A stretch of 64,000 bases of DNA. It comes from an uncultured Gammaproteobacteria bacterium (GTDB taxonomy: Bacteria; Patescibacteriota; Microgenomatia; 0-14-0-10-38-17). Below the pieces are notes generated by a model, which searched no databases, was not told the origin of the DNA, and saw only the letters and a list, made by a program, of their open reading frames with translations. Below are positions 43,736-59,060 of this stretch, in pieces (within the stretch, counting starts at the first letter, position 1; every line of letters begins with the position of its first letter). The stretch lies in NCBI GenBank assembly GCA_964348895.1, contig CAYGEH010000001.1, positions 246,610 to 310,609 of the forward strand, read 5' to 3'. The position numbers and the translations under genes were made by a program.

Positions 43736-45145
43736 ATGTTAACTCGCCAGTCCCTCCTCAAATTATTAAAAATTCCGTCGCTCTTAAATAAAAAATGGTT
43801 TGTTAGTTCTCTTTTTTTTGCCCTTGTTGTTCTCCTTTCTTTAGGTCTGGGGGCAACGGGTGGCTTTCTTTATCAAAACTGGCAAAACAGAAATAAAACT
43901 GATGCTGTCTTGGGCCAAGAGAGAAGCTCGTATTTGGTTTTTACCGAAGAAATTTATCATAAAATTAAAAATAATCACTGGAAGGTAACTTCCGAAGAAG
44001 ATCTGGTTAATCTTTATTTCTTGGCAATTGAAAAACTAACTGGTCAAATTCAGGCCTCCTCCCCTCAAGATTTGTCTTCTCTTTTGGTTTCAGTTGAAAA
44101 TATCTTAGAACAAATTGAAACAGAAGAGGCGAGAGAAGATTTTGTTGTTCAACTTAATAATTTAGTTCTTAACAATCTAGAACCTTTCGGACGAAGTCAG
44201 CTTTATCGTCAAAAAGAGGAACAAGAATTAAACGACATGGTTCTTAATGTGGCCAAACAAGATCATTATCAAGTTCTAGGCCTTAATAAAGAAGCTTCTC
44301 AAGAAGAAATATCTCAAGCTCACCAAAACCTAAACCAAACCCTAAGTCAAGACAGTACCCCCGAAGCCAAAGAAAAATTAGCTCAAGTTGGCCAAGCCTA
44401 TCGAATTTTAGGTAATGAATCTGCTCGCCAAATTTATGATGTTTCTGGCGTTGAGCCTACTATAGAGTATCGGCTTATTCGCAACAACATTTTTCATCTT
44501 CATTTGAAAAGCTTTTCTCCTGCCACCTTCGACGAATTACAAAGAGCAACTCAGAAAGTTCAGGGATTACCAGGAGTTGACACTCTAGTTCTCGACCTTC
44601 GCAACAATATTGGCGGAGCAATCGACAACCTGCCCTACCTTCTGGGACCCTTTATTGGCCAAGACAGACACGCCTACCAGTTCTTTCATCAAGGAAAAAG
44701 AATCGACTATAAAACTCGTATTGGTTGGCTCCCCAGTTTATTTCAGTATAAAAAAGTGGTTATTTTAATCAACGAAAACTCTCAAAGTTCGGCCGAAGTA
44801 GTCGCCTCTGTTTTGAAAAAATATAATGTTGGTGTTTTAGTTGGTAATACTACTCGTGGTTGGGGAACCGTAGAAAAAATTTTCCGATTAGAAACCCAAA
44901 TTAATCAAAACGAAACCTATTCTTTGTTTTTGGCGCATAGTCTTACTCTAAGAGAAGATGGTCAGCCAATCGAGGGACTAGGGGTTGAGCCACACATTTT
45001 TACCTCAAACCCTAATTGGCAAAGAGACCTTTATTCTTATTTGCCAGATCAAAACATTGTTGACACAGTAGAGCAAATTCTAGCAGAAAGCAATCCGACC
45101 CCTCTTGAACTCAATAAAGAAACTCCCAGCGAAGACAAAGAATAA
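43736..45145 (+). CDS. Membrane-anchored protein with a J-like domain (no HPD) fused to an S41 (C-terminal processing) peptidase domain
   Basis: J-like DHYQVLGLNKEASQEEISQAHQNL...QAYRILGNESARQIYD. S41 LDLRNNIGG and SQSSAEV serine motif. Confidence 0.65.
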   Translation: MLTRQSLLKLLKIPSLLNKKWFVSSLFFALVVLLSLGLGATGGFLYQNWQNRNKTDAVLGQERSSYLVFTEEIYHKIKNNHWKVTSEEDLVNLYFLAIEKLTGQIQASSPQDLSSLLVSVENILEQIETEEAREDFVVQLNNLVLNNLEPFGRSQLYRQKEEQELNDMVLNVAKQDHYQVLGLNKEASQEEISQAHQNLNQTLSQDSTPEAKEKLAQVGQAYRILGNESARQIYDVSGVEPTIEYRLIRNNIFHLHLKSFSPATFDELQRATQKVQGLPGVDTLVLDLRNNIGGAIDNLPYLLGPFIGQDRHAYQFFHQGKRIDYKTRIGWLPSLFQYKKVVILINENSQSSAEVVASVLKKYNVGVLVGNTTRGWGTVEKIFRLETQINQNETYSLFLAHSLTLREDGQPIEGLGVEPHIFTSNPNWQRDLYSYLPDQNIVDTVEQILAESNPTPLELNKETPSEDKE

Positions 45146-45970: not shown

Positions 45971-46441
45971 ATGATCAAAAAGACAGAAACCAAAAACTCT
46001 TCTTCTAAAATTTATCGGTCGGAACAAAATCGTATTTTAGCTGGAGTTGCTGGGGGAATTGGCGAATATTTTACTCTTGACCCTGTTTTAATTAGAATCA
46101 TTCTTGTTTTAATTGGTTTATCTGGTGGAGGTGGAATAATTCTTTATTTGGTTTTGTGGCTAATTATCCCTGGTCAACCAGAAAACAGCGCTTCAAACAA
46201 TCAGGAAAACTTAAAGAAAAACGCCCAAGAAATTAAAGATCAAACTAAAAAATATCTCGAGGACGCTCGAGGAGTTTTTCAAAAAAAAGAAGCTAGGGTT
46301 TGGCTTGGCTTTAGTTTAGTTTTCTTGGGTTTTTATTTTATTTTGATGAACTTTGGTTTTTTAACAAGATTTTTAAGTTTTTTTCAGCTTTGGCCACTAT
46401 TATTGGTCGGTCTTGGTCTGGCTCTGCTTTTCCGCTCTTAA
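45971..46441 (+). CDS. PspC domain-containing membrane protein
   Basis: RSEQNRILAGVAGGIGEYFTLDPVLIRIILV PspC signature. Confidence 0.75.
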   Translation: MIKKTETKNSSSKIYRSEQNRILAGVAGGIGEYFTLDPVLIRIILVLIGLSGGGGIILYLVLWLIIPGQPENSASNNQENLKKNAQEIKDQTKKYLEDARGVFQKKEARVWLGFSLVFLGFYFILMNFGFLTRFLSFFQLWPLLLVGLGLALLFRS

Positions 46442-46447
46442 AATCTT

Positions 46448-47425
46448 ATGAGAAAAATTGTCTGGCCCCGAATCTTTATTCTTGTTGGAATTCTTTTTCT
46501 CTCTAATAGTCTTGGTTTTTTTTCTTGGTCAACCTGGAGCTTTCTTTGGCGTTTTTGGCCCATTGTTTTGGTTTTGGCTGGTCTGAGGTTAATCTTTAGT
46601 CGTTCTTTTTGGACAAAGTTTGTTCTTATTTCTCTCAACCTAATTATAGCTGGAAGTATTTTTTCTTTATTTTTAGCCTGGGCTAAACCAGTTATAGCTC
46701 CTCACTGGCTCTCTTTTAGAAAAGAAACAGCTCGCTGGTCAAAAGAGGCTTTCCCTCAAGAAAGAAAACAAGAATTTATTATTACCGACAAAGACTATCC
46801 CAATTTAAGCAAAAAAAGTGTCACTATTGATCTTGATTTTGGCCAACTAGATCTTTCTGATCAACAGGACAGTCCGAATTTATTTTGGCTTTTTTCTCAA
46901 TACCAATACCCCTTTGGTGTTCCCCAAGTAAACACTGATCTCATCCAAAAAGAAGAAAAAATCATCATTAATTTTAGCAATTATCAAGGGGGGGTTATCC
47001 CTCCTAGTCGATTAACCAACAAAATGCGCTACCAAGCAGTTTTGGGTAAAACTAATTTACCCCTCCAGCTTACACTAAACACAAATATTGGCCAAGCTCA
47101 AATCCATCTAAAAGAAACTCCAGTTGAAAAACTAACTCTTGGAGTTGGCACTGGAAAAACTAAAATTGAATTATCTAAATTCTCCTTGCCTCAAGATAAG
47201 CTCATAATTAATTTAGAGGCCGGCGAAGCAGAGGTCACTCTCCCTGCAAAAACCAAAATCAAGCTTCACTACAGCCTAGAGACTGGAAGAATTAACCTCA
47301 ACGAAGAAAGGCTTATCGAGTCAGACCAAAGCAAAAGCCTCTCTTTTGGTCAAAACGACTGGCCTGAAGTGATAATTGAGGCTAGGGTTGGCAGTGGCGC
47401 CCTTACAATAAAAAATCGCCAATAA
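46448..47425 (+). CDS. Membrane protein with C-terminal beta-rich domain (LiaF/DUF4097-like partner of PspC)
   Basis: 3-4 N-terminal TMs. Adjacent to, and 6 nt after, the PspC gene. Confidence 0.4.
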   Translation: MRKIVWPRIFILVGILFLSNSLGFFSWSTWSFLWRFWPIVLVLAGLRLIFSRSFWTKFVLISLNLIIAGSIFSLFLAWAKPVIAPHWLSFRKETARWSKEAFPQERKQEFIITDKDYPNLSKKSVTIDLDFGQLDLSDQQDSPNLFWLFSQYQYPFGVPQVNTDLIQKEEKIIINFSNYQGGVIPPSRLTNKMRYQAVLGKTNLPLQLTLNTNIGQAQIHLKETPVEKLTLGVGTGKTKIELSKFSLPQDKLIINLEAGEAEVTLPAKTKIKLHYSLETGRINLNEERLIESDQSKSLSFGQNDWPEVIIEARVGSGALTIKNRQ

Positions 47426-47476: not shown

Positions 47477-48460
47477 ATGACTAATCGGCCACGAGTCTTT
47501 TCTGGCATCAAACCCACTGGCAATCTTCATTTGGGGAATTACATTGGCGCTATCAGTCAGTGGATAAAAATACAAGATCAATATGACTGTTTTTTCTGTA
47601 TTGTTGATCTTCATGCTATTACCGTTTCTCAAGACCCCAAACAATTAGCCGAAAAAACCAAGGAGCTCGCCTCTTTATATCTTGCTTGTGGGCTTGATCC
47701 AAAAAAATCAACCATTTTTATTCAATCTCATAATCCTGACCATACTAGCTTAGCCTGGATTTTGAATTGTCTTGCTTCAATGGGCCAATTGGCAAGAATG
47801 ACTCAATATAAAGCTAAAATTAAAAAAACTAATGCTGGTGTTGGTCTTTTTAATTATCCTCTTCTGATGGCGGCTGATATTTTGCTTTACCAAACTGATT
47901 TGGTTCCAGTAGGAGAAGATCAAAAACAACACATAGAATTGGCTCGAGACTTGGCAGAAAAGTTTAATTCTTCTTTCGGATCAGCCTTTAAAATACCAAA
48001 ACCAAAAATACTCTCAATGGGGGCAAAAATTATGTCCTTACAAAACCCAACTCAAAAAATGAGCAAATCTTTTCAGGATAAAAAGGGAACAATCGATTTG
48101 CTGGACACACCAAAGGAAATATCAACTAAAGTTATGGCCGCAATTACTGATTCTGATCAAGAAATTAAAGCCAGTGTTGAAAAACCAGGAATCACTAATT
48201 TATTAGTTCTTTACTCTGCTGTTAGTGGTCAAACCATTAACCAGCTAGAACAACAATATCAAAACAAAAACTATGGTCAGCTTAAAGCTAATCTCGCAAA
48301 AACAATCGTTGATTTTCTAGCACCAATTCAACAGCGATATCAAATAATTCGCCAAAACGAAAAAGAGCTAAACACCATTCTTAAAGAGGGGGCAGAGAGA
48401 GCTAAAAGAATTTCTCGAATAACCCTAAGTGAGGCTCAGAAAAAAATGGGACTAGAATAA
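47477..48460 (+). CDS. trpS: Tryptophan--tRNA ligase
   Basis: GIKPTGNLHLGNY and KMSKS motifs. Confidence 0.9.
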   Translation: MTNRPRVFSGIKPTGNLHLGNYIGAISQWIKIQDQYDCFFCIVDLHAITVSQDPKQLAEKTKELASLYLACGLDPKKSTIFIQSHNPDHTSLAWILNCLASMGQLARMTQYKAKIKKTNAGVGLFNYPLLMAADILLYQTDLVPVGEDQKQHIELARDLAEKFNSSFGSAFKIPKPKILSMGAKIMSLQNPTQKMSKSFQDKKGTIDLLDTPKEISTKVMAAITDSDQEIKASVEKPGITNLLVLYSAVSGQTINQLEQQYQNKNYGQLKANLAKTIVDFLAPIQQRYQIIRQNEKELNTILKEGAERAKRISRITLSEAQKKMGLE

Positions 48461-48504
48461 ACTTGCTACTTGAAAAATAAAGCTTATAGTAGTATCATTC
48501 CTCT

Positions 48505-49260
48505 ATGTCTAGAAGAATAGAATCGGCTTCAGGCTTGGGTGAAACACAAGATCCGTTTCGTTTGCCCCTTTCAAGTTCTGATTTAGCTAGGCAACTGCCT
48601 GAACAATCTTGGCCTAATTCTCTCAAATCGTCTTCTAATTACGAAACAGCAAGAACTCTTTTTTGTAGAACAAGTCTTTCTCCTGAAGAAGGCGACGGAG
48701 AAAGTAAAGCGTTGGGCAAGACTGGTCAAGCCCTTGAAGGTTTGGGCATTCGTCAAAGAGTAGAAGAGCTTTTTATTTTTTATTTGACTCTCTTTGGTGA
48801 TGAGACAGACAGGCTAAATTCGAAAGGGAAAATAAGACCCAATAATCAATCCATCGAACAAATAATAAGCGCTGTTTGTTCTAGCTATGGGACTAAACAG
48901 AATTCTGACCTTATTATCGCGGATGGGGCAACCATTAACACCCCTAGAAATGGGGTTCTTCAAGACAACGCTTCCCCAAATCAACCTATTCCAGAGATTT
49001 ACTATCGTGATCCAGGAACATTTATTGCTGAATGCTTAAAACAACTTGATGAAAGCGGGGTCCTTCTGGCCAAAGAAAGAGCTATAATCACTAAATGCTT
49101 TTGTTCTTTAGTTGGGTCTCTCGTCAACGAAAAATTCAAAATTTCTAAAAAACCTGAAAGCCAAGTAGCACATTTGGGAACTGTTCCTGGTCGTCGATCA
49201 CACACAAATGGTGGTCAAAGACAAAATGGCACTGGATTTCGTAGAAATCCTTCTTTGTAG
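48505..49260 (+). CDS. Hypothetical protein containing an internal block homologous to the duplicated 411-aa secreted protein
   Basis: ADGATINTPRNGVLQDNASPNQ versus AAGGATINTFRNGVLQDNTSPDTW, with about 85% nucleotide identity over about 60 nt. Confidence 0.35.
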   Translation: MSRRIESASGLGETQDPFRLPLSSSDLARQLPEQSWPNSLKSSSNYETARTLFCRTSLSPEEGDGESKALGKTGQALEGLGIRQRVEELFIFYLTLFGDETDRLNSKGKIRPNNQSIEQIISAVCSSYGTKQNSDLIIADGATINTPRNGVLQDNASPNQPIPEIYYRDPGTFIAECLKQLDESGVLLAKERAIITKCFCSLVGSLVNEKFKISKKPESQVAHLGTVPGRRSHTNGGQRQNGTGFRRNPSL

Positions 49261-49315
49261 TTCTCTATATCACCAGTCGATCTTTTCTTCCTTGCAAAAA
49301 GCATTAAGTGTAATC

Positions 49316-49747
49316 TTAGCGATTAACAACTAACTGTTTTTCTTCATCCCAACACTCTCTGGCAAGATTATTCGGAAAGTTAGTTTCTGTCAAAACCTGA
49401 CAACTTGGCAACCCTTGACCGTCATGAACTAGTTGCCAATTTTCACCTTGACGAGCCAGCCACAACCAAACCCTGTCGTCACCAGAAAAACTAACCGAAC
49501 CACGAGCATAATTTCCCTCAATCTCCCAGGAAGAAAGATTAATCTTGTCTTGAGATTGATTATGATTTTTTAATAAAGCGTTTTTTATGGCAGTTTGGTC
49601 AAATTCAACCCCTGGTTCTGGTGAATCAACAGCATCTCTTAGCGAAATCGGAGCAAAATTGTCTCCTTGTCGATTAAACCACCAAAAGAACCCTAAAATT
49701 AAAAAAACTAAAACAAAAAGAGCAACCAAAACTCCATTTTCTTTCAT
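49316..49747 (-). CDS. Hypothetical membrane-anchored small secreted protein
   Basis: N-terminal TM VLVALFVLVFLILGFFWWF. Confidence 0.4.
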   Translation of the reverse strand: MKENGVLVALFVLVFLILGFFWWFNRQGDNFAPISLRDAVDSPEPGVEFDQTAIKNALLKNHNQSQDKINLSSWEIEGNYARGSVSFSGDDRVWLWLARQGENWQLVHDGQGLPSCQVLTETNFPNNLARECWDEEKQLVVNR

Positions 49748-49897
49748 TGCTTGACTTTGATTTTAGCACAAAAATAATTAATCTTAAAAAGAATTCTTTA
49801 CCTGCCCAACTTTATTCTCACTCGTTTAAAGACGAAGCTGTCTTGAAAATTTTTGGAGCGAAGCAGATCTTCTGTTTGCCCTTCCCTTTCTTCTCTA

Positions 49898-51016
49898 TTA
49901 CTCTTTCTGTTCCGAAGTTCTAATTTGTCTTAATTCTTCCTCTAAAACCTTCTTTTCGTCTAATTGGCGCTTGATAGAGAGAATAAGTAAGATAACAATT
50001 GCCAGAGCCAGTAAAACAGCCAAGATTATCTTCCAAGGCATAACCCAAAAGAACAGGGTGTGGGTAATGGTTTGACCGTCTCCATAAAGAGCGCTTAGGG
50101 TGGCCGAGTAGCGACCAAAGTGCCATCTACCACCAAATTCGGCTTCATATTGTCTTTGGGCTTGGGGGAGAATGTTCTGTCTTTCAAGTCGAACTAGACT
50201 GGGTTGCTCTAAACCCCAAGTATTTCTCACTTCTATCTCTAGGATAGGCTTGATGTGAACTGTGCTTAAATTTAGGATTCGGGCCACAAAGGGAACTGGG
50301 CCGTATTCAAATAAAACTCTGGGGGTAGAGAATTCGGTAATATTAGCGCTGTATTCTACCGGACCCTCAACTGTAACCAGGTTTAGTGAGGCGACATTAA
50401 GATTAACAAACGCCCCAGTAGTGATTTGATCAGTTTGACCAACTAAGTCAGTCTCGCCAGATAAAAGAGCGGTGACGGCAAAGTAAAATCCTCCCGGTTC
50501 GGCATTTTGGGGAATAACAATAGTATAGGCAACGTCAACTTGCTCTCCTGCTTCTAGGGTAACTCTATTGGGATTAATTACTACCCAGTTGTGAGAATCG
50601 GGTAGAGGGTCGTCGTCTACTTCAACACCGCCAGTATCACCAGAGGCAATAAAAGGTGAAGCCCGTAAAACTAGGGTTACCGTTCTATCGCTTTGATTAA
50701 GAAGCGACATCTGATAAGAGTTGGCGCTTCCTCGAGGTAACTCAAGTTCTCTTACTGGTGGACTAATAGTGATTAAACTACTTAACCCTCCCTGCTGTTC
50801 TGGGGCGGCTACTGGCCGAGGCTCAGCATAGGGAGTCATTGTCGCCTCTTTGGTAACTTCAACCACCTCTCTGGTTCTGGCTGGTTGATTGGTCTCTGTT
50901 TCTTCTTGAGCGAGGGTGACTTTAGTCAAAGCAAAGCCTAAGGCTAGGAAGCCAAGCAGAATGATTACTAGGGCAGTTTTTTTAATCATTTGTTTTTTTA
51001 ATAACGACCAGTACAA
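49898..51016 (-). CDS. Surface protein, copy 1: cleavable N-terminal signal, beta-rich ectodomain, single C-terminal TM anchor and charged tail (KRQLDEKKVLEEELRQIRTSEQKE)
   Basis: 372 aa; 19-nt overlap with the upstream 411-aa gene (translational coupling). Architecture of type-I surface-anchored proteins. Confidence 0.6.
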   Translation of the reverse strand: MYWSLLKKQMIKKTALVIILLGFLALGFALTKVTLAQEETETNQPARTREVVEVTKEATMTPYAEPRPVAAPEQQGGLSSLITISPPVRELELPRGSANSYQMSLLNQSDRTVTLVLRASPFIASGDTGGVEVDDDPLPDSHNWVVINPNRVTLEAGEQVDVAYTIVIPQNAEPGGFYFAVTALLSGETDLVGQTDQITTGAFVNLNVASLNLVTVEGPVEYSANITEFSTPRVLFEYGPVPFVARILNLSTVHIKPILEIEVRNTWGLEQPSLVRLERQNILPQAQRQYEAEFGGRWHFGRYSATLSALYGDGQTITHTLFFWVMPWKIILAVLLALAIVILLILSIKRQLDEKKVLEEELRQIRTSEQKE

Positions 51017-52233
51017 AGGTAAGAGACAACATTAGAATAAACGCCGGCTTCCTGTAGTCCAGAAATCTCAACCCGATAAACAATGTAGGCCTGGCCGTTA
51101 GGATCAGCTCCACCAACACCATTGGCTGGAGCGTTGTGGCTCAAGATAGCCTCGTAAAGATTTGATAGCCCAGCAAACCTGGCTCCAGTAAAGCGGTTAC
51201 CGGCTCCAGCTCCAGCAAGGTCGTCAAGGGCAAGATCAGTTGTTCCATAACCAAGGTGACCATAGGTGTCAAGGGAGCCAGGGGTACCCAAAGGAGCAGC
51301 CCAAGTGTCAGGAGAAGTGTTGTCTTGGAGAACTCCATTTCTAAAAGTGTTAATGGTTGCCCCGCCCGCGGCAGTAAGATCAGAATACTGTCTGACGGCA
51401 AAGTGGAATCCATTGGCCCCATTAGTGCTAACCCTGATCATCTGTCCTGATTGAGAGGAGGCGCCGCTGTTGATAACTCCAAAGGGAATCGCGGTTGCTG
51501 TCGTGGCAAATCCGGCTGCTCCATAAGTGTTGCCCAGGGTGTTAAAGTTTTCGGCGGGGGCAACTCCAGCCACCTGACAAGAGAGAGTCGCCTTTACTTC
51601 GGCGGTAATGGTAACTGCGTCAATAATGGCCGCTCTCACCGAGGCAGTGTCTATGGTCACGGCAGAAGCGTTCTGGGTTTGATATTCAATTAAGTAGGTA
51701 TCGGCAGTCCCCGCCGCAGCCACCTTGGTTGGATTCTGAACATCGTTTAAGCCACCAGCCGCTCCATCCCCCATGGTGATTTCAACAAATTGGTTGGCAG
51801 CAAGACCAGAGCAGGCTCCTGAAGGAGCCAGGGTTAGGGTAATTATTTCATCAGCATTGTTAATGGCCACTCCAACTACACCCGCCGCTGGAGTGGCAGC
51901 AAGGGTACAAGTGGTCGGGCTAGACATATCAGCGTTAACACTGTGTCTCATCGTCATATCGGTAAAAGAATGGCCTACTCCCAAGTCAAATGGAGCTCCG
52001 GCTCCAGGAGCAAGGTCGATGACAATTCTGCCTGAGGTGGGAACAACAAGGGTGGTTCTAAAATAGTGGACGTGTCTAGTGTTGGCAAAAAGAGGGCGAG
52101 AATCAGAGATTGTAATTTGGGCGTTTCTCAAGCTACTAAAAGAGGCACTAAGGTTAGGGTAGGTTAAGAACAGGACCAGAGTCAGCAAGAAAAACAAGCT
52201 TTTTTTAGAGAAGAAGTTTTTGATCATTGGCAA
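50998..52233 (-). CDS. Secreted Ala/Gly/Thr-rich protein, copy 1 (signal peptide; GC-rich relative to the window)
   Basis: 411 aa, N-terminal signal MPMIKNFFSKKSLFFLLTLVLFLTYPNLSASF, low-complexity A/G/T-rich body. Confidence 0.6.
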   Translation of the reverse strand: MPMIKNFFSKKSLFFLLTLVLFLTYPNLSASFSSLRNAQITISDSRPLFANTRHVHYFRTTLVVPTSGRIVIDLAPGAGAPFDLGVGHSFTDMTMRHSVNADMSSPTTCTLAATPAAGVVGVAINNADEIITLTLAPSGACSGLAANQFVEITMGDGAAGGLNDVQNPTKVAAAGTADTYLIEYQTQNASAVTIDTASVRAAIIDAVTITAEVKATLSCQVAGVAPAENFNTLGNTYGAAGFATTATAIPFGVINSGASSQSGQMIRVSTNGANGFHFAVRQYSDLTAAGGATINTFRNGVLQDNTSPDTWAAPLGTPGSLDTYGHLGYGTTDLALDDLAGAGAGNRFTGARFAGLSNLYEAILSHNAPANGVGGADPNGQAYIVYRVEISGLQEAGVYSNVVSYLCTGRY

Positions 52234-52331
52234 GAGGTTTTTTGCTTGTTTATTAATGCTTCCTACAAGTTAAGAATAAACAAGTTTTGGGGTGTTTGTC
52301 AAGGGGTTTTTCTTTCCCCCTTCTTCTCTGG

Positions 52332-53450
52332 TTACTCTTTCTGTTCCGAAGTTCTAATTTGTCTTAATTCTTCCTCTAAAACCTTCTTTTCGTCTAATTG
52401 GCGCTTGATAGAGAGAATAAGTAAGATAACAATTGCCAGAGCCAGTAAAACAGCCAAGATTATCTTCCAAGGCATAACCCAAAAGAACAGGGTGTGGGTA
52501 ATGGTTTGACCGTCTCCATAAAGAGCGCTTAGGGTGGCCGAGTAGCGACCAAAGTGCCATCTACCACCAAATTCGGCTTCATATTGTCTTTGGGCTTGGG
52601 GGAGAATGTTCTGTCTTTCAAGTCGAACTAGACTGGGTTGCTCTAAACCCCAAGTATTTCTCACTTCTATCTCTAGGATAGGCTTGATGTGAACTGTGCT
52701 TAAATTTAGGATTCGGGCCACAAAGGGAACTGGGCCGTATTCAAATAAAACTCTGGGGGTAGAGAATTCGGTAATATTAGCGCTGTATTCTACCGGACCC
52801 TCAACTGTAACCAGGTTTAGTGAGGCGACATTAAGATTAACAAACGCCCCAGTAGTGATTTGATCAGTTTGACCAACTAAGTCAGTCTCGCCAGATAAAA
52901 GAGCGGTGACGGCAAAGTAAAATCCTCCCGGTTCGGCATTTTGGGGAATAACAATAGTATAGGCAACGTCAACTTGCTCTCCTGCTTCTAGGGTAACTCT
53001 ATTGGGATTAATTACTACCCAGTTGTGAGAATCGGGTAGAGGGTCGTCGTCTACTTCAACACCGCCAGTATCACCAGAGGCAATAAAAGGTGAAGCCCGT
53101 AAAACTAGGGTTACCGTTCTATCGCTTTGATTAAGAAGCGACATCTGATAAGAGTTGGCGCTTCCTCGAGGTAACTCAAGTTCTCTTACTGGTGGACTAA
53201 TAGTGATTAAACTACTTAACCCTCCCTGCTGTTCTGGGGCGGCTACTGGCCGAGGCTCAGCATAGGGAGTCATTGTCGCCTCTTTGGTAACTTCAACCAC
53301 CTCTCTGGTTCTGGCTGGTTGATTGGTCTCTGTTTCTTCTTGAGCGAGGGTGACTTTAGTCAAAGCAAAGCCTAAGGCTAGGAAGCCAAGCAGAATGATT
53401 ACTAGGGCAGTTTTTTTAATCATTTGTTTTTTTAATAACGACCAGTACAA
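52332..53450 (-). CDS. Surface protein with N-signal and C-terminal TM anchor, copy 2 (identical to 49898-51016)
   Basis: Identical translation. Confidence 0.6.
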   Translation of the reverse strand: MYWSLLKKQMIKKTALVIILLGFLALGFALTKVTLAQEETETNQPARTREVVEVTKEATMTPYAEPRPVAAPEQQGGLSSLITISPPVRELELPRGSANSYQMSLLNQSDRTVTLVLRASPFIASGDTGGVEVDDDPLPDSHNWVVINPNRVTLEAGEQVDVAYTIVIPQNAEPGGFYFAVTALLSGETDLVGQTDQITTGAFVNLNVASLNLVTVEGPVEYSANITEFSTPRVLFEYGPVPFVARILNLSTVHIKPILEIEVRNTWGLEQPSLVRLERQNILPQAQRQYEAEFGGRWHFGRYSATLSALYGDGQTITHTLFFWVMPWKIILAVLLALAIVILLILSIKRQLDEKKVLEEELRQIRTSEQKE

Positions 53451-54667
53451 AGGTAAGAGACAACATTAGAATAAACGCCGGCTTCCTGTAGTCCAGAAAT
53501 CTCAACCCGATAAACAATGTAGGCCTGGCCGTTAGGATCAGCTCCACCAACACCATTGGCTGGAGCGTTGTGGCTCAAGATAGCCTCGTAAAGATTTGAT
53601 AGCCCAGCAAACCTGGCTCCAGTAAAGCGGTTACCGGCTCCAGCTCCAGCAAGGTCGTCAAGGGCAAGATCAGTTGTTCCATAACCAAGGTGACCATAGG
53701 TGTCAAGGGAGCCAGGGGTACCCAAAGGAGCAGCCCAAGTGTCAGGAGAAGTGTTGTCTTGGAGAACTCCATTTCTAAAAGTGTTAATGGTTGCCCCGCC
53801 CGCGGCAGTAAGATCAGAATACTGTCTGACGGCAAAGTGGAATCCATTGGCCCCATTAGTGCTAACCCTGATCATCTGTCCTGATTGAGAGGAGGCGCCG
53901 CTGTTGATAACTCCAAAGGGAATCGCGGTTGCTGTCGTGGCAAATCCGGCTGCTCCATAAGTGTTGCCCAGGGTGTTAAAGTTTTCGGCGGGGGCAACTC
54001 CAGCCACCTGACAAGAGAGAGTCGCCTTTACTTCGGCGGTAATGGTAACTGCGTCAATAATGGCCGCTCTCACCGAGGCAGTGTCTATGGTCACGGCAGA
54101 AGCGTTCTGGGTTTGATATTCAATTAAGTAGGTATCGGCAGTCCCCGCCGCAGCCACCTTGGTTGGATTCTGAACATCGTTTAAGCCACCAGCCGCTCCA
54201 TCCCCCATGGTGATTTCAACAAATTGGTTGGCAGCAAGACCAGAGCAGGCTCCTGAAGGAGCCAGGGTTAGGGTAATTATTTCATCAGCATTGTTAATGG
54301 CCACTCCAACTACACCCGCCGCTGGAGTGGCAGCAAGGGTACAAGTGGTCGGGCTAGACATATCAGCGTTAACACTGTGTCTCATCGTCATATCGGTAAA
54401 AGAATGGCCTACTCCCAAGTCAAATGGAGCTCCGGCTCCAGGAGCAAGGTCGATGACAATTCTGCCTGAGGTGGGAACAACAAGGGTGGTTCTAAAATAG
54501 TGGACGTGTCTAGTGTTGGCAAAAAGAGGGCGAGAATCAGAGATTGTAATTTGGGCGTTTCTCAAGCTACTAAAAGAGGCACTAAGGTTAGGGTAGGTTA
54601 AGAACAGGACCAGAGTCAGCAAGAAAAACAAGCTTTTTTTAGAGAAGAAGTTTTTGATCATTGGCAA
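53432..54667 (-). CDS. Secreted Ala/Gly/Thr-rich protein, copy 2 (identical to 50998-52233)
   Basis: Identical translation. Confidence 0.6.
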   Translation of the reverse strand: MPMIKNFFSKKSLFFLLTLVLFLTYPNLSASFSSLRNAQITISDSRPLFANTRHVHYFRTTLVVPTSGRIVIDLAPGAGAPFDLGVGHSFTDMTMRHSVNADMSSPTTCTLAATPAAGVVGVAINNADEIITLTLAPSGACSGLAANQFVEITMGDGAAGGLNDVQNPTKVAAAGTADTYLIEYQTQNASAVTIDTASVRAAIIDAVTITAEVKATLSCQVAGVAPAENFNTLGNTYGAAGFATTATAIPFGVINSGASSQSGQMIRVSTNGANGFHFAVRQYSDLTAAGGATINTFRNGVLQDNTSPDTWAAPLGTPGSLDTYGHLGYGTTDLALDDLAGAGAGNRFTGARFAGLSNLYEAILSHNAPANGVGGADPNGQAYIVYRVEISGLQEAGVYSNVVSYLCTGRY

Positions 54668-54819
54668 GAGGTTTTTTGCTTGTTTATTAATGCTTCCTAC
54701 AAGTTAAGAATAAACAAGTTTTGGGGTGTTTGTCAAGCATCAACTGAATATTTATGCCCAGTGGATGAGAAATTTTAACAATTGCTTACATTTAAAAAGA
54801 TTTCTTATTTCTGATCCAA

Positions 54820-55053
54820 TTATTTATTTGCCATCGCCAGTTCTTTGGCCATTTTTTTTTGAAGATCGTCTTTTAATTCTTTAATTTCTGCCTTTAATCG
54901 AACAGCTTCTTCTTCGCCAATTTTAATTGTCTTACCGACTTGCTTTCCAATCTTTTTTCGCATATCTTCGTTCAATAGAATTGCCACCCCTGCCCCAACT
55001 AAGGCTCCCACCAAAGCGGCGGTTAAAAAATTGTTCTCACGGTGATCGCTCAT
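54820..55053 (-). CDS. YtxH-like small protein (N-terminal TM + coiled-coil)
   Basis: AALVGALVGAGVAILL followed by a K/E-rich helix. Confidence 0.55.
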   Translation of the reverse strand: MSDHRENNFLTAALVGALVGAGVAILLNEDMRKKIGKQVGKTIKIGEEEAVRLKAEIKELKDDLQKKMAKELAMANK

Positions 55054-56042: not shown

Positions 56043-56321
56043 ATGAATCACAATAAGAAAAATCTCGATAAAAGAATAAACTATATCCTGGGACATCTTA
56101 AGGGAGTTAAAAAAATGATTGCTGAAGAAAAGTATTGTATTGATATTATTCAACAAAATCGAGCCATCATCGCCGCTCTAAAAAAAACCAACAAAATAAT
56201 TTTAGAAAAACACTTAAACACCTGTCTTATTCAGGCGGCTAAAGGCAAAGACCATCAAGAGATCCAAAAAAAAATAGAAGAAATTCTTCTTCTCTTTGAA
56301 GACTCTGAAAATGACCGCTGA
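56043..56321 (+). CDS. csoR: CsoR/RcnR-family metal-sensing transcriptional repressor
   Basis: DUF156 fold with conserved Cys/His positions (YCIDII ... H ... C). Confidence 0.75.
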   Translation: MNHNKKNLDKRINYILGHLKGVKKMIAEEKYCIDIIQQNRAIIAALKKTNKIILEKHLNTCLIQAAKGKDHQEIQKKIEEILLLFEDSENDR

Positions 56322-56904
56322 TAATTTCAGAAAACAAAGTCTTCTGTCAGCATTGTTTTCTGGCTTAATCCCTCACCTTTTCTGTATTCTCTTTCTTCTT
56401 TTTGCCGCTCTAGGGACAACTGCCATAACCGCCTTAATAAAACCACTCTTGCTTTCCTCTGGTTTTTTTTATTTTCTTATTTTTGCTTCTTTGCTTTTTG
56501 CTACTATTTCGGCCATTATTTACCTAAAGAGGTGTCGGTTTCTTTCTTGGCAGGGAGTCAGAAAAAAGTGGCGCTATCTTAGTCTTCTTTATCTTGTCAC
56601 TGTTACAACTAACTTAGTATTTTTTTTAATAATTTTCCCAAAAGCTGCCAATCTTGACTTTAACAAGAGTCAGGTTTTAGGGGAAATCGATGAACCCTCT
56701 TCTTCAATAACGGTCGCAGTTGAAATTCCCTGTTCTGGTCACGCACCTTTAATTATTAATGAAATAGAAAAGACTTCTGGAATTAAGAATGTTATTTTTA
56801 GTTTTCCCAACTTATTTAAAATTATTTTTCTTCCTCAACAAATTACTCCCGAAAAGATTTTAAGTTTGCCTATTTTTAATAATTTTCCAGCCAAACTACA
56901 ATGA
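56296..56904 (+). CDS. Membrane protein of the copper operon with C-terminal soluble domain (single PCSGH Cys/His motif)
   Basis: 4 TMs; overlaps csoR by 26 nt and copA by 4 nt. Confidence 0.4.
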   Translation: MKTLKMTADNFRKQSLLSALFSGLIPHLFCILFLLFAALGTTAITALIKPLLLSSGFFYFLIFASLLFATISAIIYLKRCRFLSWQGVRKKWRYLSLLYLVTVTTNLVFFLIIFPKAANLDFNKSQVLGEIDEPSSSITVAVEIPCSGHAPLIINEIEKTSGIKNVIFSFPNLFKIIFLPQQITPEKILSLPIFNNFPAKLQ

Positions 56905-59060
56905 AAAAAATTACTTTATCGGTTTTGGGGATGAGCTGTCTTGCTTGTGCTCAAGCAATTGAAACCAAGCTAAAAAAACATCCTGGTGTCATTAATGCCA
57001 GTGTCAATTTCACTACTGGCCTTCTTCTGATTCAAGCTCAAAAATCAGTTTCCCGAAGCGAATTAATTCAAGTCATTCGCCAGCTTGGTTACGAGGCCGA
57101 AGAGCCAAGACCAGCCCTAAGTCACAAAATAGCCCAGAAAGCCAAAAACCAGGCCCTTGTCGCTCTTTTTCTTAGTTTGGCTCTTATGGCAATAATGGCA
57201 GGAGAACACCTCTTGGGAATGGATCTAAAAAAAGAATTCGGATCTCTTCGCTTAGCCGTTGAGGCCATTCTTACTTTCTTGGTAGTTTATGTTTTGGGTT
57301 GGCCAATTCATCTTTCTGGCTGGAGAGCGATTAAAAAAGCCTACCCCAACATGGATACCTTAATTTCTTTGGGGGCATCGGCAGCTTTTTGGTTTGGAGT
57401 AGCCGCATTTTTTTGGAAAATTCCGGTCTTTTTTGAAGTAGCCGCCTTTATTATTTCTTTTCAGCTAATCGGCCATTATCTGGAAGTCAGAGCTAGAGGT
57501 AAAGCCTCTCAGGCCATAAAAGAACTTCTTGCCCTAAAACCCAAAAACGCCAGAGTTTTAAAAAACGGTCAAGAAAAAATAATTCCCTTAAAAAATTTAA
57601 CTATCGGGGATGTTGTTTTGGTTAAGCCAGGGGAAATGATCCCTGCTGACGGAGAAGTAATTGCTGGTCAATCAACCATTAATGAAGCTATTGCCACCGG
57701 AGAATCACAACCAATCATCAAAGCCGTGGGCAGTAAGGTTCTTCAATCAACTATTAACCAAAATGGTTGGCTTAAAATTAAAATTAATAAAACTGGTCAA
57801 GAAACTTTTCTATCACAAATAATTAAATTAATTGAAGAGGCTCAAGGCAATAAAATCCCAATTCAAAAATTGGCCGACCAGGTTACTGCTCGCTTTGTTC
57901 CTGTTATTTTGTTTATTGCTCTTGCCACCTTTGTTTTCTGGGCCGCAATGGGTCAATGGCCTAAGGGAATATTATCTGCTATTACCGTTTTAATTATCGC
58001 TTGTCCTTGTGCTTTGGGTTTAGCAACTCCAACTGCTCTAACAGTTGCCATTGGCGAAGGAGCCAAAATGGGCATTTTAATCCGTCGAGGCGAGGCAGTC
58101 GAAAAGCTAAGTAAGATTAAAACAATTGTTTTAGACAAAACCGGAACTATCACTGAAGGAAAACTAACCATTTCTGATATTCAATCTTTTTCGGTTAATC
58201 AAAAAAAAGTTCTCACCATTGCCGCTAGCCTGGAAAACTATTCAGAGCACCCTATTGCTGAGGCTATTTTGAAAAAAGCCAAAAATGAAAAAGTAAAACT
58301 ACTTCCTGTTGATAGCTTTCAGGCAATACCAGGACAGGGAGTTAGGGGAATAATTGATCAAAAAGAAACCCTAATTGGAACTGAAAGCCTTTTGACAGAA
58401 AACAGCGTTGATCTTTCCGCGATAAAAAGAAAGATTATCGCACTAGAAAAAAAGGGGAAAACGGTTATTGTTCTTGCTCAAAATCAAAAACCGCTTGGTC
58501 TATTTGCTCTTGCTGATTCTCCGAAGGAAAACGCAGCTGGGGCTGTTAGAGGTCTAAAGGAAATGGGTTTCAAAGTAATAATGTTAACTGGTGATCATCA
58601 TCGAGCTGCCAAGCTAATTGCCGATCAAGTAAAAATAAATAATATAATCGCCCGGGTTTTGCCCAAAGAGAAAGTAGCTGTTATTAAAAAATTGCAAGAA
58701 AAAGGCGAGGGGGTAATTATGGTCGGCGACGGCATTAATGATGCGCCAGCCCTGACTCAAGCTAATGTTGGAATTGCTATGGGTTCTGGGGCCGATGTTA
58801 CTGCTGAAGCTGGTGATATTGTTCTTGTTGCCTCTAATCCTGAAGCTATTGTCAAAGCGATTAATCTTAATCAAAAAGCTTTTAGAGTTATCAAGCAAAA
58901 TCTTTTCTGGGCTTTCCTTTATAATACTCTAGCAATTCCTGCGGCGGCGGCGGGAATATTGGCAACTCCCCTTGGTCCCATTATTGCTGCTGGAGCAATG
59001 ACTCTTAGCTCTCTCTCTGTCATCTTAAATTCTCTAAGAATAAAGCTTCAGTTAAATTAA
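56901..59060 (+). CDS. copA: Copper-translocating P1B-type ATPase with N-terminal HMA domain
   Basis: GMSCLAC metal-binding motif, CPC, DKTGTIT, GDGINDAPAL. Confidence 0.9.
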   Translation: MKKITLSVLGMSCLACAQAIETKLKKHPGVINASVNFTTGLLLIQAQKSVSRSELIQVIRQLGYEAEEPRPALSHKIAQKAKNQALVALFLSLALMAIMAGEHLLGMDLKKEFGSLRLAVEAILTFLVVYVLGWPIHLSGWRAIKKAYPNMDTLISLGASAAFWFGVAAFFWKIPVFFEVAAFIISFQLIGHYLEVRARGKASQAIKELLALKPKNARVLKNGQEKIIPLKNLTIGDVVLVKPGEMIPADGEVIAGQSTINEAIATGESQPIIKAVGSKVLQSTINQNGWLKIKINKTGQETFLSQIIKLIEEAQGNKIPIQKLADQVTARFVPVILFIALATFVFWAAMGQWPKGILSAITVLIIACPCALGLATPTALTVAIGEGAKMGILIRRGEAVEKLSKIKTIVLDKTGTITEGKLTISDIQSFSVNQKKVLTIAASLENYSEHPIAEAILKKAKNEKVKLLPVDSFQAIPGQGVRGIIDQKETLIGTESLLTENSVDLSAIKRKIIALEKKGKTVIVLAQNQKPLGLFALADSPKENAAGAVRGLKEMGFKVIMLTGDHHRAAKLIADQVKINNIIARVLPKEKVAVIKKLQEKGEGVIMVGDGINDAPALTQANVGIAMGSGADVTAEAGDIVLVASNPEAIVKAINLNQKAFRVIKQNLFWAFLYNTLAIPAAAAGILATPLGPIIAAGAMTLSSLSVILNSLRIKLQLN

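Follow-up and report, generated by a model that had tools for sequence, protein, structure and literature searches.

A repeated gene pair in a Patescibacterial genome encodes a predicted WxLIP homologue and a candidate secreted partner

Introduction

Our study concerns two adjacent minus-strand genes, here called A and B, in a 64,000-nucleotide stretch of DNA (the window; positions 246,610 to 310,609 of contig CAYGEH010000001.1, assembly GCA_964348895.1) from a bacterium that is deposited as an uncultured Gammaproteobacteria bacterium and placed by GTDB in the Patescibacteriota (Microgenomatia). All coordinates below are positions in this window. By comparing sequence profiles and predicted structures we identify protein B as a homologue of the WxLIP surface proteins of Firmicutes, and protein A as a candidate for the partner that such a protein would anchor. 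In the literature, clusters of WxL and WxLIP genes belong to Gram-positive commensals and pathogens of low GC content and are ascribed a role in adhesion and virulence; to our knowledge, the way in which ultra-small episymbiotic bacteria build their surfaces and attach to their hosts is largely unknown. None of the papers that we searched links Patescibacteria with DUF916, the first of the two WxLIP domains.

Results

A two-gene unit present as an exact tandem repeat

The genes and associated features of the locus are as follows.

49898..52303, minus strand: repeat unit copy 1 (promoter-like site, gene A and gene B), 100% identical to 52332-54737
52332..54737, minus strand: repeat unit copy 2, the upstream copy (promoter-like site, gene A and gene B)
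52304..52331, minus strand: junction spacer of 28 nt between the two units
50998..52227, minus strand: gene A, copy 1, 409 aa from ATG (maximal open reading frame (ORF) with TTG start 50998-52233, 411 aa)
53432..54661, minus strand: gene A, copy 2, identical protein (maximal ORF 53432-54667)
49898..50989, minus strand: gene B, copy 1, 363 aa from ATG (maximal ORF with TTG start 49898-51016, 372 aa)
52332..53423, minus strand: gene B, copy 2, identical protein (maximal ORF 52332-53450)
52273..52302, minus strand: sigma-70-like promoter candidate TTGACA-18-TATTCT at the 5' edge of copy 1, a match to 10/12 consensus positions only
54707..54736, minus strand: sigma-70-like promoter candidate TTGACA-18-TATTCT at the 5' edge of copy 2, again a 10/12 consensus match only

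A shift comparison identified 49898-52303 and 52332-54737 as an exact direct repeat of 2,406 bp with 100% identity, the sole large direct repeat in the window. An earlier note on this DNA, made from the sequence alone, had described two minus-strand ORFs of 411 aa (50998-52233) and 372 aa (49898-51016); both are present as claimed, but the note covered one copy only and missed the exact 2,406-bp tandem duplication. On the coding strand the first bases of the repeat unit are the TTGACA of the promoter-like site and the last are the stop codon of gene B, so that each unit resembles an expression cassette that is complete in itself.

The ATG starts at 52227 (A) and 50989 (B) place the genes 8 nt apart (TAA-AAAAACAA-ATG), and in the closest relatives the annotated lengths of 409 aa and 363 aa fit these starts. 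The 19-nt overlap reported earlier exists for the maximal TTG-started ORFs but disappears with the ATG starts used by relatives, and the translational coupling proposed on its basis is probably wrong, given the 8-nt gap. Runs of seven adenines occur at 52204-52198, 50999-50993 and 50982-50976, with equivalent sites in copy 2; they coincide with Lys codons of both signal peptides and with the 8-nt gap between the genes. These runs probably reflect Lys-rich n-regions in an AT-rich genome, and we make no claim of phase variation.

Protein B is a predicted full-length WxLIP homologue

The regions of protein B, given for copy 1, are the following.

50989-50909, minus strand: signal peptide, residues 1-27
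50908-50780, minus strand: disordered acidic/Pro linker, residues 28-70
50779-50459, minus strand: Ig-like domain 1 (DUF916/PGBD-like), residues about 71-177
50458-50399, minus strand: low-confidence loop, residues about 178-197
50398-50042, minus strand: Ig-like domain 2 (DUF3324/HBD-like), residues about 198-316
50041-49967, minus strand: transmembrane helix, about residues 317-341
49966-49901, minus strand: charged tail of 22 aa, residues 342-363

The signal peptide (MIKKTALVIILLGFLALGFALTKVTLA|QEE) contains hydrophobic 19-mers at residues 1-10 with a Kyte-Doolittle hydropathy of 2.4, and the C-terminal transmembrane segment reaches values of up to 3.5, with basic residues (KR) beside the helix in the tail. 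The AlphaFold2 (AF2) model of B, with a predicted local distance difference test score (pLDDT) of 83, has a helix at residues 2-25, beta structure from 73 to 316 and a helix at 319-362. Within the beta structure one sandwich covers residues 73-176 and the other 199-316, with low pLDDT in the loop between them at about 180-195. Hydropathy and model thus agree with the N-terminal signal, beta-rich ectodomain, C-terminal membrane anchor and charged tail described before.

Searched alone against Pfam, B gives only a weak fn3_5 match and stays below the threshold of PF06030 (WxLIP_PGBD), a family that is matched by 16/38 aligned members of the B family (best E 1.3e-8); among the B proteins scanned there is no Pfam match to DUF3324. 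PF06030 is also present in distant homologues of B. A profile of the B family matches EfmWxLIP1 (PDB 9i25_C, 9i1y_A) at E 5e-5 over the DUF916/PGBD domain. The same Enterococcus faecium WxLIP chains, 9i1y_A and 9i25_C, are the top Foldseek matches of the B model (E 1e-12), with 246-252 aligned columns of chains that are 251-267 residues long; below them stand the pilus chaperones CfaA, CsuC, FimC and Caf1M (E 1e-10 to 1e-7) and RbmA. An hhalign comparison of the B family with nine Firmicute DUF916/DUF3324 proteins scored 98.7% (E 1.6e-16) over 266 columns, which comprise both Ig-like domains and the transmembrane helix. The Pfam, profile, Foldseek and hhalign matches together turn what had been noted as a resemblance to DUF916/DUF3324 and WxL systems "by architecture only" into homology in the case of B, and we conclude from these sequence and model comparisons that B is a full-length WxLIP homologue, with counterparts of DUF916 and DUF3324 as well as of the membrane-spanning helix.

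Protein A belongs to a large family of unnamed secreted proteins

Protein A has three regions, again given for copy 1.

52227-52144, minus strand: signal peptide, residues 1-28
52143-51613, minus strand: N-domain, about residues 29-205
51612-51001, minus strand: C-domain, about residues 206-409

The protein is acidic (pI 4.9), rich in Ala (14.4%), Gly (10.5%) and Thr (10.3%), and has a single hydrophobic segment at its N-terminus; both the composition and the N-terminal signal agree with the earlier description. Its AF2 model (pLDDT 86, predicted TM-score 0.53) consists of the signal-peptide helix and two beta-sandwich domains. Regular-expression searches bear out the reported lack of surface-protein motifs: an LPXTG-type sorting signal is found in neither A nor B, and A has no W-x-L motif, its sole Trp being W309. 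No match to A was found in Pfam (for the protein itself and for all 40 aligned members of its family), NCBIfam or PHROGs, and scans of the pair and its neighbors against NCBIfam, PHROGs and Rfam gave nothing useful. Foldseek matches of the model are to generic Ig-like adhesin and pilin domains, namely AgI/II, CsuE, CfaE, ClfB, BcpA and BslA, as well as CfaB and the group B Streptococcus (GBS) pilin; TM-scores to pilins and adhesins of 0.15-0.28 over the whole protein indicate a generic Ig-like similarity. Matches in the viral BFVD library are at noise level only. Neither protein of the pair shows homology to a cytoplasmic enzyme, and signal peptides are predicted for both.

The contig index contains no exact match to protein A. 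When 1.84 billion representative proteins, clustered at 50% identity, were searched with a profile, A fell into a family of at least 2,263 clusters at E<=1e-3, 359 of them at E<=1e-30. Ten clusters sampled from the family are unnamed or labeled "hypothetical protein", and homologues with names and genome loci come from Shapirobacteria, Microgenomates and metagenome-assembled genomes of other Patescibacteria. The C-domain ends at most three residues from the C-terminus in 202/205 proteins and is the better conserved of the two domains, with a mean column conservation of 0.73 vs 0.66 for the N-domain. Clusters of relatives encode small forms of A consisting of a signal peptide and the C-domain only (223-257 aa), and large forms with Laminin_G_3 domains or extensions of about 1,000 aa at the N-terminus. 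Small and large forms occur together in loci L004, L014, L016 and L026 and in many metagenome loci. In still other proteins of relatives the A N-domain precedes fn3, Big, dockerin or CarboxypepD_reg domains.

Genes A and B form a conserved module

We surveyed the pairing of the two families in 80 metagenome loci retrieved with the B family, counting B ORFs with at least 700 nt of upstream sequence. An A-family ORF lies upstream on the same strand, within 400 nt, for 75/92 B-family ORFs, and an A-then-B pair is present in 62/64 testable loci. The order A-B-A-B occurs in 23/80 of the loci. In GTDB genomes A directly precedes B in all nine of the loci (9/9). Genes of the A and B families are therefore a conserved A-then-B module that is often arranged as A-B-A-B. 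The two proteins can also be a single polypeptide: protein P0202 (locus L026, 5001-7001) is an in-frame B::A fusion in which the transmembrane helix of B is followed by RWLKQRSTR, an A signal peptide and a complete A. Second B paralogues occur in clusters of relatives.

The cluster that encodes this fusion also encodes a large A of 996 aa, plus another B and A. In the Shapirobacteria relatives L014, L015, L016 and L018 the pair stands within a larger conserved cluster adjoining the leucyl-tRNA synthetase (LeuRS) gene, with genes for a 241-aa polytopic membrane protein, a TPR protein, in some cases a small A, a B2 paralogue, then A, B, in some cases a further small A, a protein of about 310 aa with signal peptide and transmembrane segment, and a Big_1/Invasin_D3 protein. 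The window has none of the additional genes of this LeuRS-side cluster. Several short-read contigs of relatives (L015/L020 and L021) stop inside or just after gene B, possibly because repeats of the A-B unit interrupt these assemblies.

Relationship of protein A to WxL proteins

The immediate neighbor of B is A, which has no PF13731 (WxL) match, and the window contains no other WxL candidate. WxL proteins have a C-terminal domain with two WxL motifs on adjacent strands, and their small and large forms share one cluster with one WxLIP (PMC9772566, PMC10599100). At the loci that we compared, namely Listeria lmo0551, Bacillus thuringiensis, Lactobacillus plantarum and Bacillus anthracis pXO1, the WxL gene is the immediate upstream neighbor of the WxLIP gene.

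The last residues of the A family follow the motif Y(98%)-[ST]-x-T-[LIV]-[TS]-Y(93%)-[IVL]-[AC]-T(94%)-P-x-[YF]-COOH, which can be set beside WxL motif 2, Y-x-[ST]-x-L-T-W-x-L-x-x-x-P; the upstream motif is [ST][ST]N-x-G-[FY]-x-[FILV]-x-V in the A family and D-x-R-G-x-x-G-W-x-L-x-V in the WxL family. The positions in A equivalent to the two WxL motifs are thus G-[FY]-x-[FILV] and Y-[IVL]-[AC]. On pXO1 the annotated WxL-domain protein (L012, 4298-4903) that lies beside a DUF916/DUF3324 gene ends in YESKLTYSIVTGP. It reads YESKLTYSI at motif 2, with Y-S-I in place of W-x-L, which shows that the Firmicute family itself includes variants that lack this Trp.

We compared a 102-sequence alignment of the A C-domain with nine WxL sequences from annotated plasmid loci. 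In local mode hhalign returned weak collinear matches at both motifs (P 0.02 for motif 2 and 0.1 for motif 1, at a probability below 3%), and 1/60 block-shuffled controls reached the real score; the global mode gave no alignment, and hmmsearch in both directions between A and WxL gave nothing significant. A homologue search with Listeria Lmo0551 returned near-identical Listeria sequences only, and tblastn of a small WxL protein of Enterococcus gilvus against plasmids yielded next to no matches, WxL proteins being too divergent.

Divergence, composition and the origin of the repeat

A relative, L001, is 96-98% identical in this region and has a matching neighborhood with a single A-B pair. Flanking sequence is conserved at 98-100% between the two; a zone from about 48400 to 55000 is more divergent, at 87-97% identity, with 91% in the upstream spacer, 94-97% in A, 92% at the A/B junction with the B linker and 87-93% in ORF 48505-49260. 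Substitutions at the three codon positions number [9,7,35] for A, [8,3,19] for B and [0,0,4] for trpS. This pattern indicates that A and B are under purifying selection, and their synonymous divergence, about seven times that of trpS, suggests local recombination or import. The nine amino-acid changes in B all fall in the signal peptide, linker and tail, leaving the folded domains unchanged, and the changes in A relative to this 96% relative are mostly synonymous; the proposal that the module is fast-evolving is therefore only partly true.

Base composition sets the pair apart as well. GC content is 0.388 for the window, 0.50 for gene A and 0.45 for gene B, and the stretch 51480-51560, singled out before as GC-rich, indeed has 0.57. 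Much of the excess lies at codon positions 1 and 2, where it reflects the Ala/Gly/Thr content of the proteins. GC at third positions (GC3) is 0.45 for A and 0.38 for B vs 0.20-0.33 in nine neighboring genes; in the Shapirobacteria relatives L014-L016 it is hardly raised (0.35-0.38 for A vs 0.31-0.35 for LeuRS of the same locus). Horizontal transfer as the explanation of the GC excess is thus only partly supported. The genomic context of the pair differs between the window and the Shapirobacteria relatives, and together with the raised GC3 here this makes relocation or import possible, though unproven; expression-linked codon bias is an alternative explanation of the raised GC3.

One further feature of the locus is the following.

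48897..48977, plus strand: inverted 81-nt copy of the GATINTxRNGVLQDNxSP block of A, within ORF 48505-49260

This segment is complementary at 83% to 51311-51391 and 53745-53825, and 21/32 aa are shared, in line with the earlier observation of a GATINT block in both genes. The block is the most conserved loop of the A C-domain. ORF 48505-49260 (plus strand, 251 aa) has no signal peptide and no family match; compared with L001 it shows no third-position bias ([16,25,14]) and has C-terminal indels, with the frame open in both genomes. The copy suggested to be part of a fast-evolving surface module is real, but the ORF that carries it shows no purifying selection. We also considered this ORF as a decayed inverted gene A, which we rejected since only the block of about 30 aa matches the A profile and no other frame does. 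We see three candidate readings of the ORF: a donor cassette that is itself silent, a pseudogene of recent origin, or a gene that evolves fast.

The perfect identity of the two units raises the question of whether the second copy is real, or a mis-joined or over-expanded repeat in the assembly of a genome that truly has one cassette. The 100% identity across 2,406 bp itself fits such an artefact, as does the fact that L001, in the same context, assembled with one copy; an exact-match search did not find the duplication junction in metagenome_contigs. L001 is, however, a short-read assembly, and since such assemblies collapse exact repeats its single copy says little. The outer upstream flank of copy 2 matches the flank of the L001 pair, and the 28-nt spacer (52304-52331), which is unique to the junction, is similar to the 26-nt segment that follows copy 1 and the L001 copy, with 4-5 mismatches, before TTGACA follows. 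The spacer is thus a diverged copy of the downstream flank, which argues against a trivial assembly join by read overlap. The window has no further large repeat, and A-B-A-B arrays are common among relatives. Weighing these points, we regard an artefact as unlikely, if still a serious possibility. The combination of identical units and a diverged spacer fits gene conversion homogenizing the units, and suggests either this process or an error-prone junction.

Neighboring genes

Several further genes around the locus are of note. At 43736-45145 (plus strand) lies a gene for a 469-aa protein with an N-terminal transmembrane segment, a DnaJ (J) domain (E 3e-11) and a Peptidase_S41 domain (E 1.5e-26), an unusual fusion that is kept in L001. 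Adjoining genes for PspC-domain and LiaF-like membrane proteins at 45971-47425 (plus strand) form an envelope-stress module just upstream of trpS. On the other side, 56043-59060 (plus strand) encodes a CsoR-like Trns_repr_metal repressor, a 202-aa membrane protein and an HMA-domain P-type ATPase, a copper/metal resistance set for which domain names were taken from the L001 orthologues.

Discussion

A candidate two-protein surface complex

Our analysis reports a predicted full-length WxLIP homologue in Patescibacteria that is regularly paired with a huge unannotated secreted family. From the homology of B and the conserved order of the genes, we consider it rather probable that each repeat unit is a cassette for a two-protein surface complex, a Patescibacterial counterpart of the WxL/WxLIP (Csc) systems. 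A is likely to be functionally equivalent to the WxL partner of these systems. Our results thus support the earlier proposal of a surface complex made up of a secreted partner and one that is anchored at its C-terminus. A common origin of the A C-domain and the WxL domain is a more tentative proposal, suggested by the position and form of the sequence motifs; it is unproven, and we lean slightly against it.

The model that we propose begins with Sec export of both proteins and cleavage of their signal peptides, after which B would stay in the cytoplasmic membrane and its two Ig-like domains would project through the wall on the flexible linker. There B would capture A non-covalently via the A C-domain. 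In WxLIP-WxL pairs a disordered hairpin of DUF916 is predicted to become a strand that completes the sandwich of the partner (PMC10599100), and PDB 9i25 is described as "WxLIP bound to long WxL". The AF2 model of B has a comparable loop of low pLDDT at about residues 178-197, which may order into a beta-strand completing the A sandwich, as AlphaFold predicts for WxLIP-WxL. The variable N-domain of A would then be displayed outward, where it would serve adhesion to, for instance, a host cell or a polymer. The exact duplication may double the dosage of the complex, and would recreate the A-B-A-B layout common in relatives.

A number of observations weigh against this proposal. On the side of B, the N-terminal WxLIP motif NQIDKxxxYFDLK (PMC10599100) is absent; the aligned position reads LITISPPVRELELPRGS, which keeps only the "x-[DE]-L" strand part. 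On the side of A, the W-x-L motif is missing, 0/40 family members match PF13731 at E<=1 and none of the small forms does, the A profile finds no match among PDB sequences, and the WxL chain of 9i25 is absent from the top 50 Foldseek matches of the model. Taken alone, the profile-profile similarity of A and WxL is far below significance. Within the window only the large 409-aa form of A is found, with neither a small A nor a second B paralogue, and in the source paper (PMC10599100) the WxLIP mechanism, too, rests largely on in silico work.

A different role for the pair would follow if A were a self-polymerizing subunit of a pilus-like fibre or an S-layer lattice, with B as a membrane-anchored base or assembly chaperone; B would prime A by donor-strand complementation, much as in chaperone-usher systems but with no usher. 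The fold matches offer some encouragement: the pilus chaperones CfaA, CsuC, FimC and Caf1M follow WxLIP in the list for B, and A resembles the tip adhesins CsuE and CfaE, together with CfaB, BcpA, the GBS pilin and BslA. The acidic, Ala/Thr/Gly-rich composition of A is like that of many S-layer and fibre proteins, the family is very widespread, and raised GC3 and a duplicated cassette with its own promoter-like site fit high expression. These similarities are, however, generic for A, to judge by its low TM-scores, and for B the chaperones are outranked by WxLIP; there is no usher, sortase/LPXTG or SLH signal in A, B or ten neighboring proteins scanned, and in its AF2 monomer A is complete by itself, at high confidence. 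We therefore think a polymerizing A unlikely. A reading in which the two genes are only transcribed together and their envelope proteins act independently and form no complex, with B for example a wall- or peptidoglycan-binding scaffold, would accommodate the 17/92 B-family ORFs that have no adjacent A-family ORF at the thresholds used, but is very improbable in view of an adjacency kept among relatives down to about 30% identity, the in-frame B::A fusion and the reported binding of homologous WxLIPs to their upstream partner (PDB 9i25).

Implications

If our reading of the cassette is correct, a surface-display system so far known only from Firmicutes appears widespread in Patescibacteria. 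We judge the result to be of moderate interest, mainly since the conserved anchor-plus-cargo cassette supplies concrete candidates for the unknown surface and attachment machinery of bacteria of the Candidate Phyla Radiation (CPR). The A family gains a testable functional hypothesis, and we suggest that it be defined as a new domain family. A bolder version of the proposal, which we consider improbable, is that A-family proteins have cryptic, Trp-less WxL-type C-domains loaded on a WxLIP-type anchor by beta-strand complementation, and together with it make up a major, unrecognized surface-display or attachment system of Patescibacteria. If this were true, A-family proteins would form adhesive or S-layer-like structures by which episymbionts hold their hosts, and WxL/WxLIP would be an ancient monoderm invention in which CPR bacteria and Firmicutes share, and would not be peculiar to Firmicutes of the gut.

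Comparison with known systems

The best single-domain superpositions for A are with BslA and TTHA1873, at target-normalized TM-scores of 0.55-0.65 and root-mean-square deviations of 4.5-5.7 Å. Only one domain is matched in these cases, there is no sequence similarity, and A shows no sign of the hydrophobic cap. Sortase-assembled pilins and MSCRAMMs (BcpA, SAK_1440, ClfB, Cna and AgI/II) share with A the beta-sandwich fold (Foldseek E 1e-6 to 1e-3) and are, as A is predicted to be, secreted surface proteins; in contrast to these, A has no LPXTG or pilin motif, its TM-scores are low, and no sortase is encoded among the neighbors scanned.

The chaperone-usher systems (CfaA/CfaE, CsuC/CsuE and FimC/FimA) also offer a parallel, with two Ig-like domains in B, a two-domain Ig-like A that resembles tip adhesins, and beta-strand complementation as the principle that we propose, by analogy, for the binding of A to B. 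The similarity is at the level of the fold, with no sequence relationship, and the setting is different: there is no outer membrane here, B is anchored by a C-terminal transmembrane helix, and no usher domain was found in ten proteins scanned around the pair or in the neighbors of the relatives' pairs.

The WxL/WxLIP (Csc) clusters are known from Lactobacillales, Listeria and Bacillus (Siezen 2006; Hassan & Williamson 2022/2023). An E. faecium example on pDMEA1 (L005, 2223-3590) has a lytic polysaccharide monooxygenase gene inside the locus. The Patescibacterial locus differs from these clusters in several respects: A has neither WxL motifs nor a PF13731 match, no LPXTG protein is encoded in the cluster, B has a long disordered acidic/Pro linker and no NQIDKxxxYFDLK, and the host is a Patescibacterium of environmental metagenomes in place of a low-GC gut commensal. 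[quoted passage not shown] The likenesses concern the organization as a whole. B is a predicted full-length WxLIP homologue with its partner gene directly upstream on the same strand, the conserved domain of the partner is C-terminal and occurs in small and large forms in the clusters of relatives, the motif positions look alike, and all components carry signal peptides.

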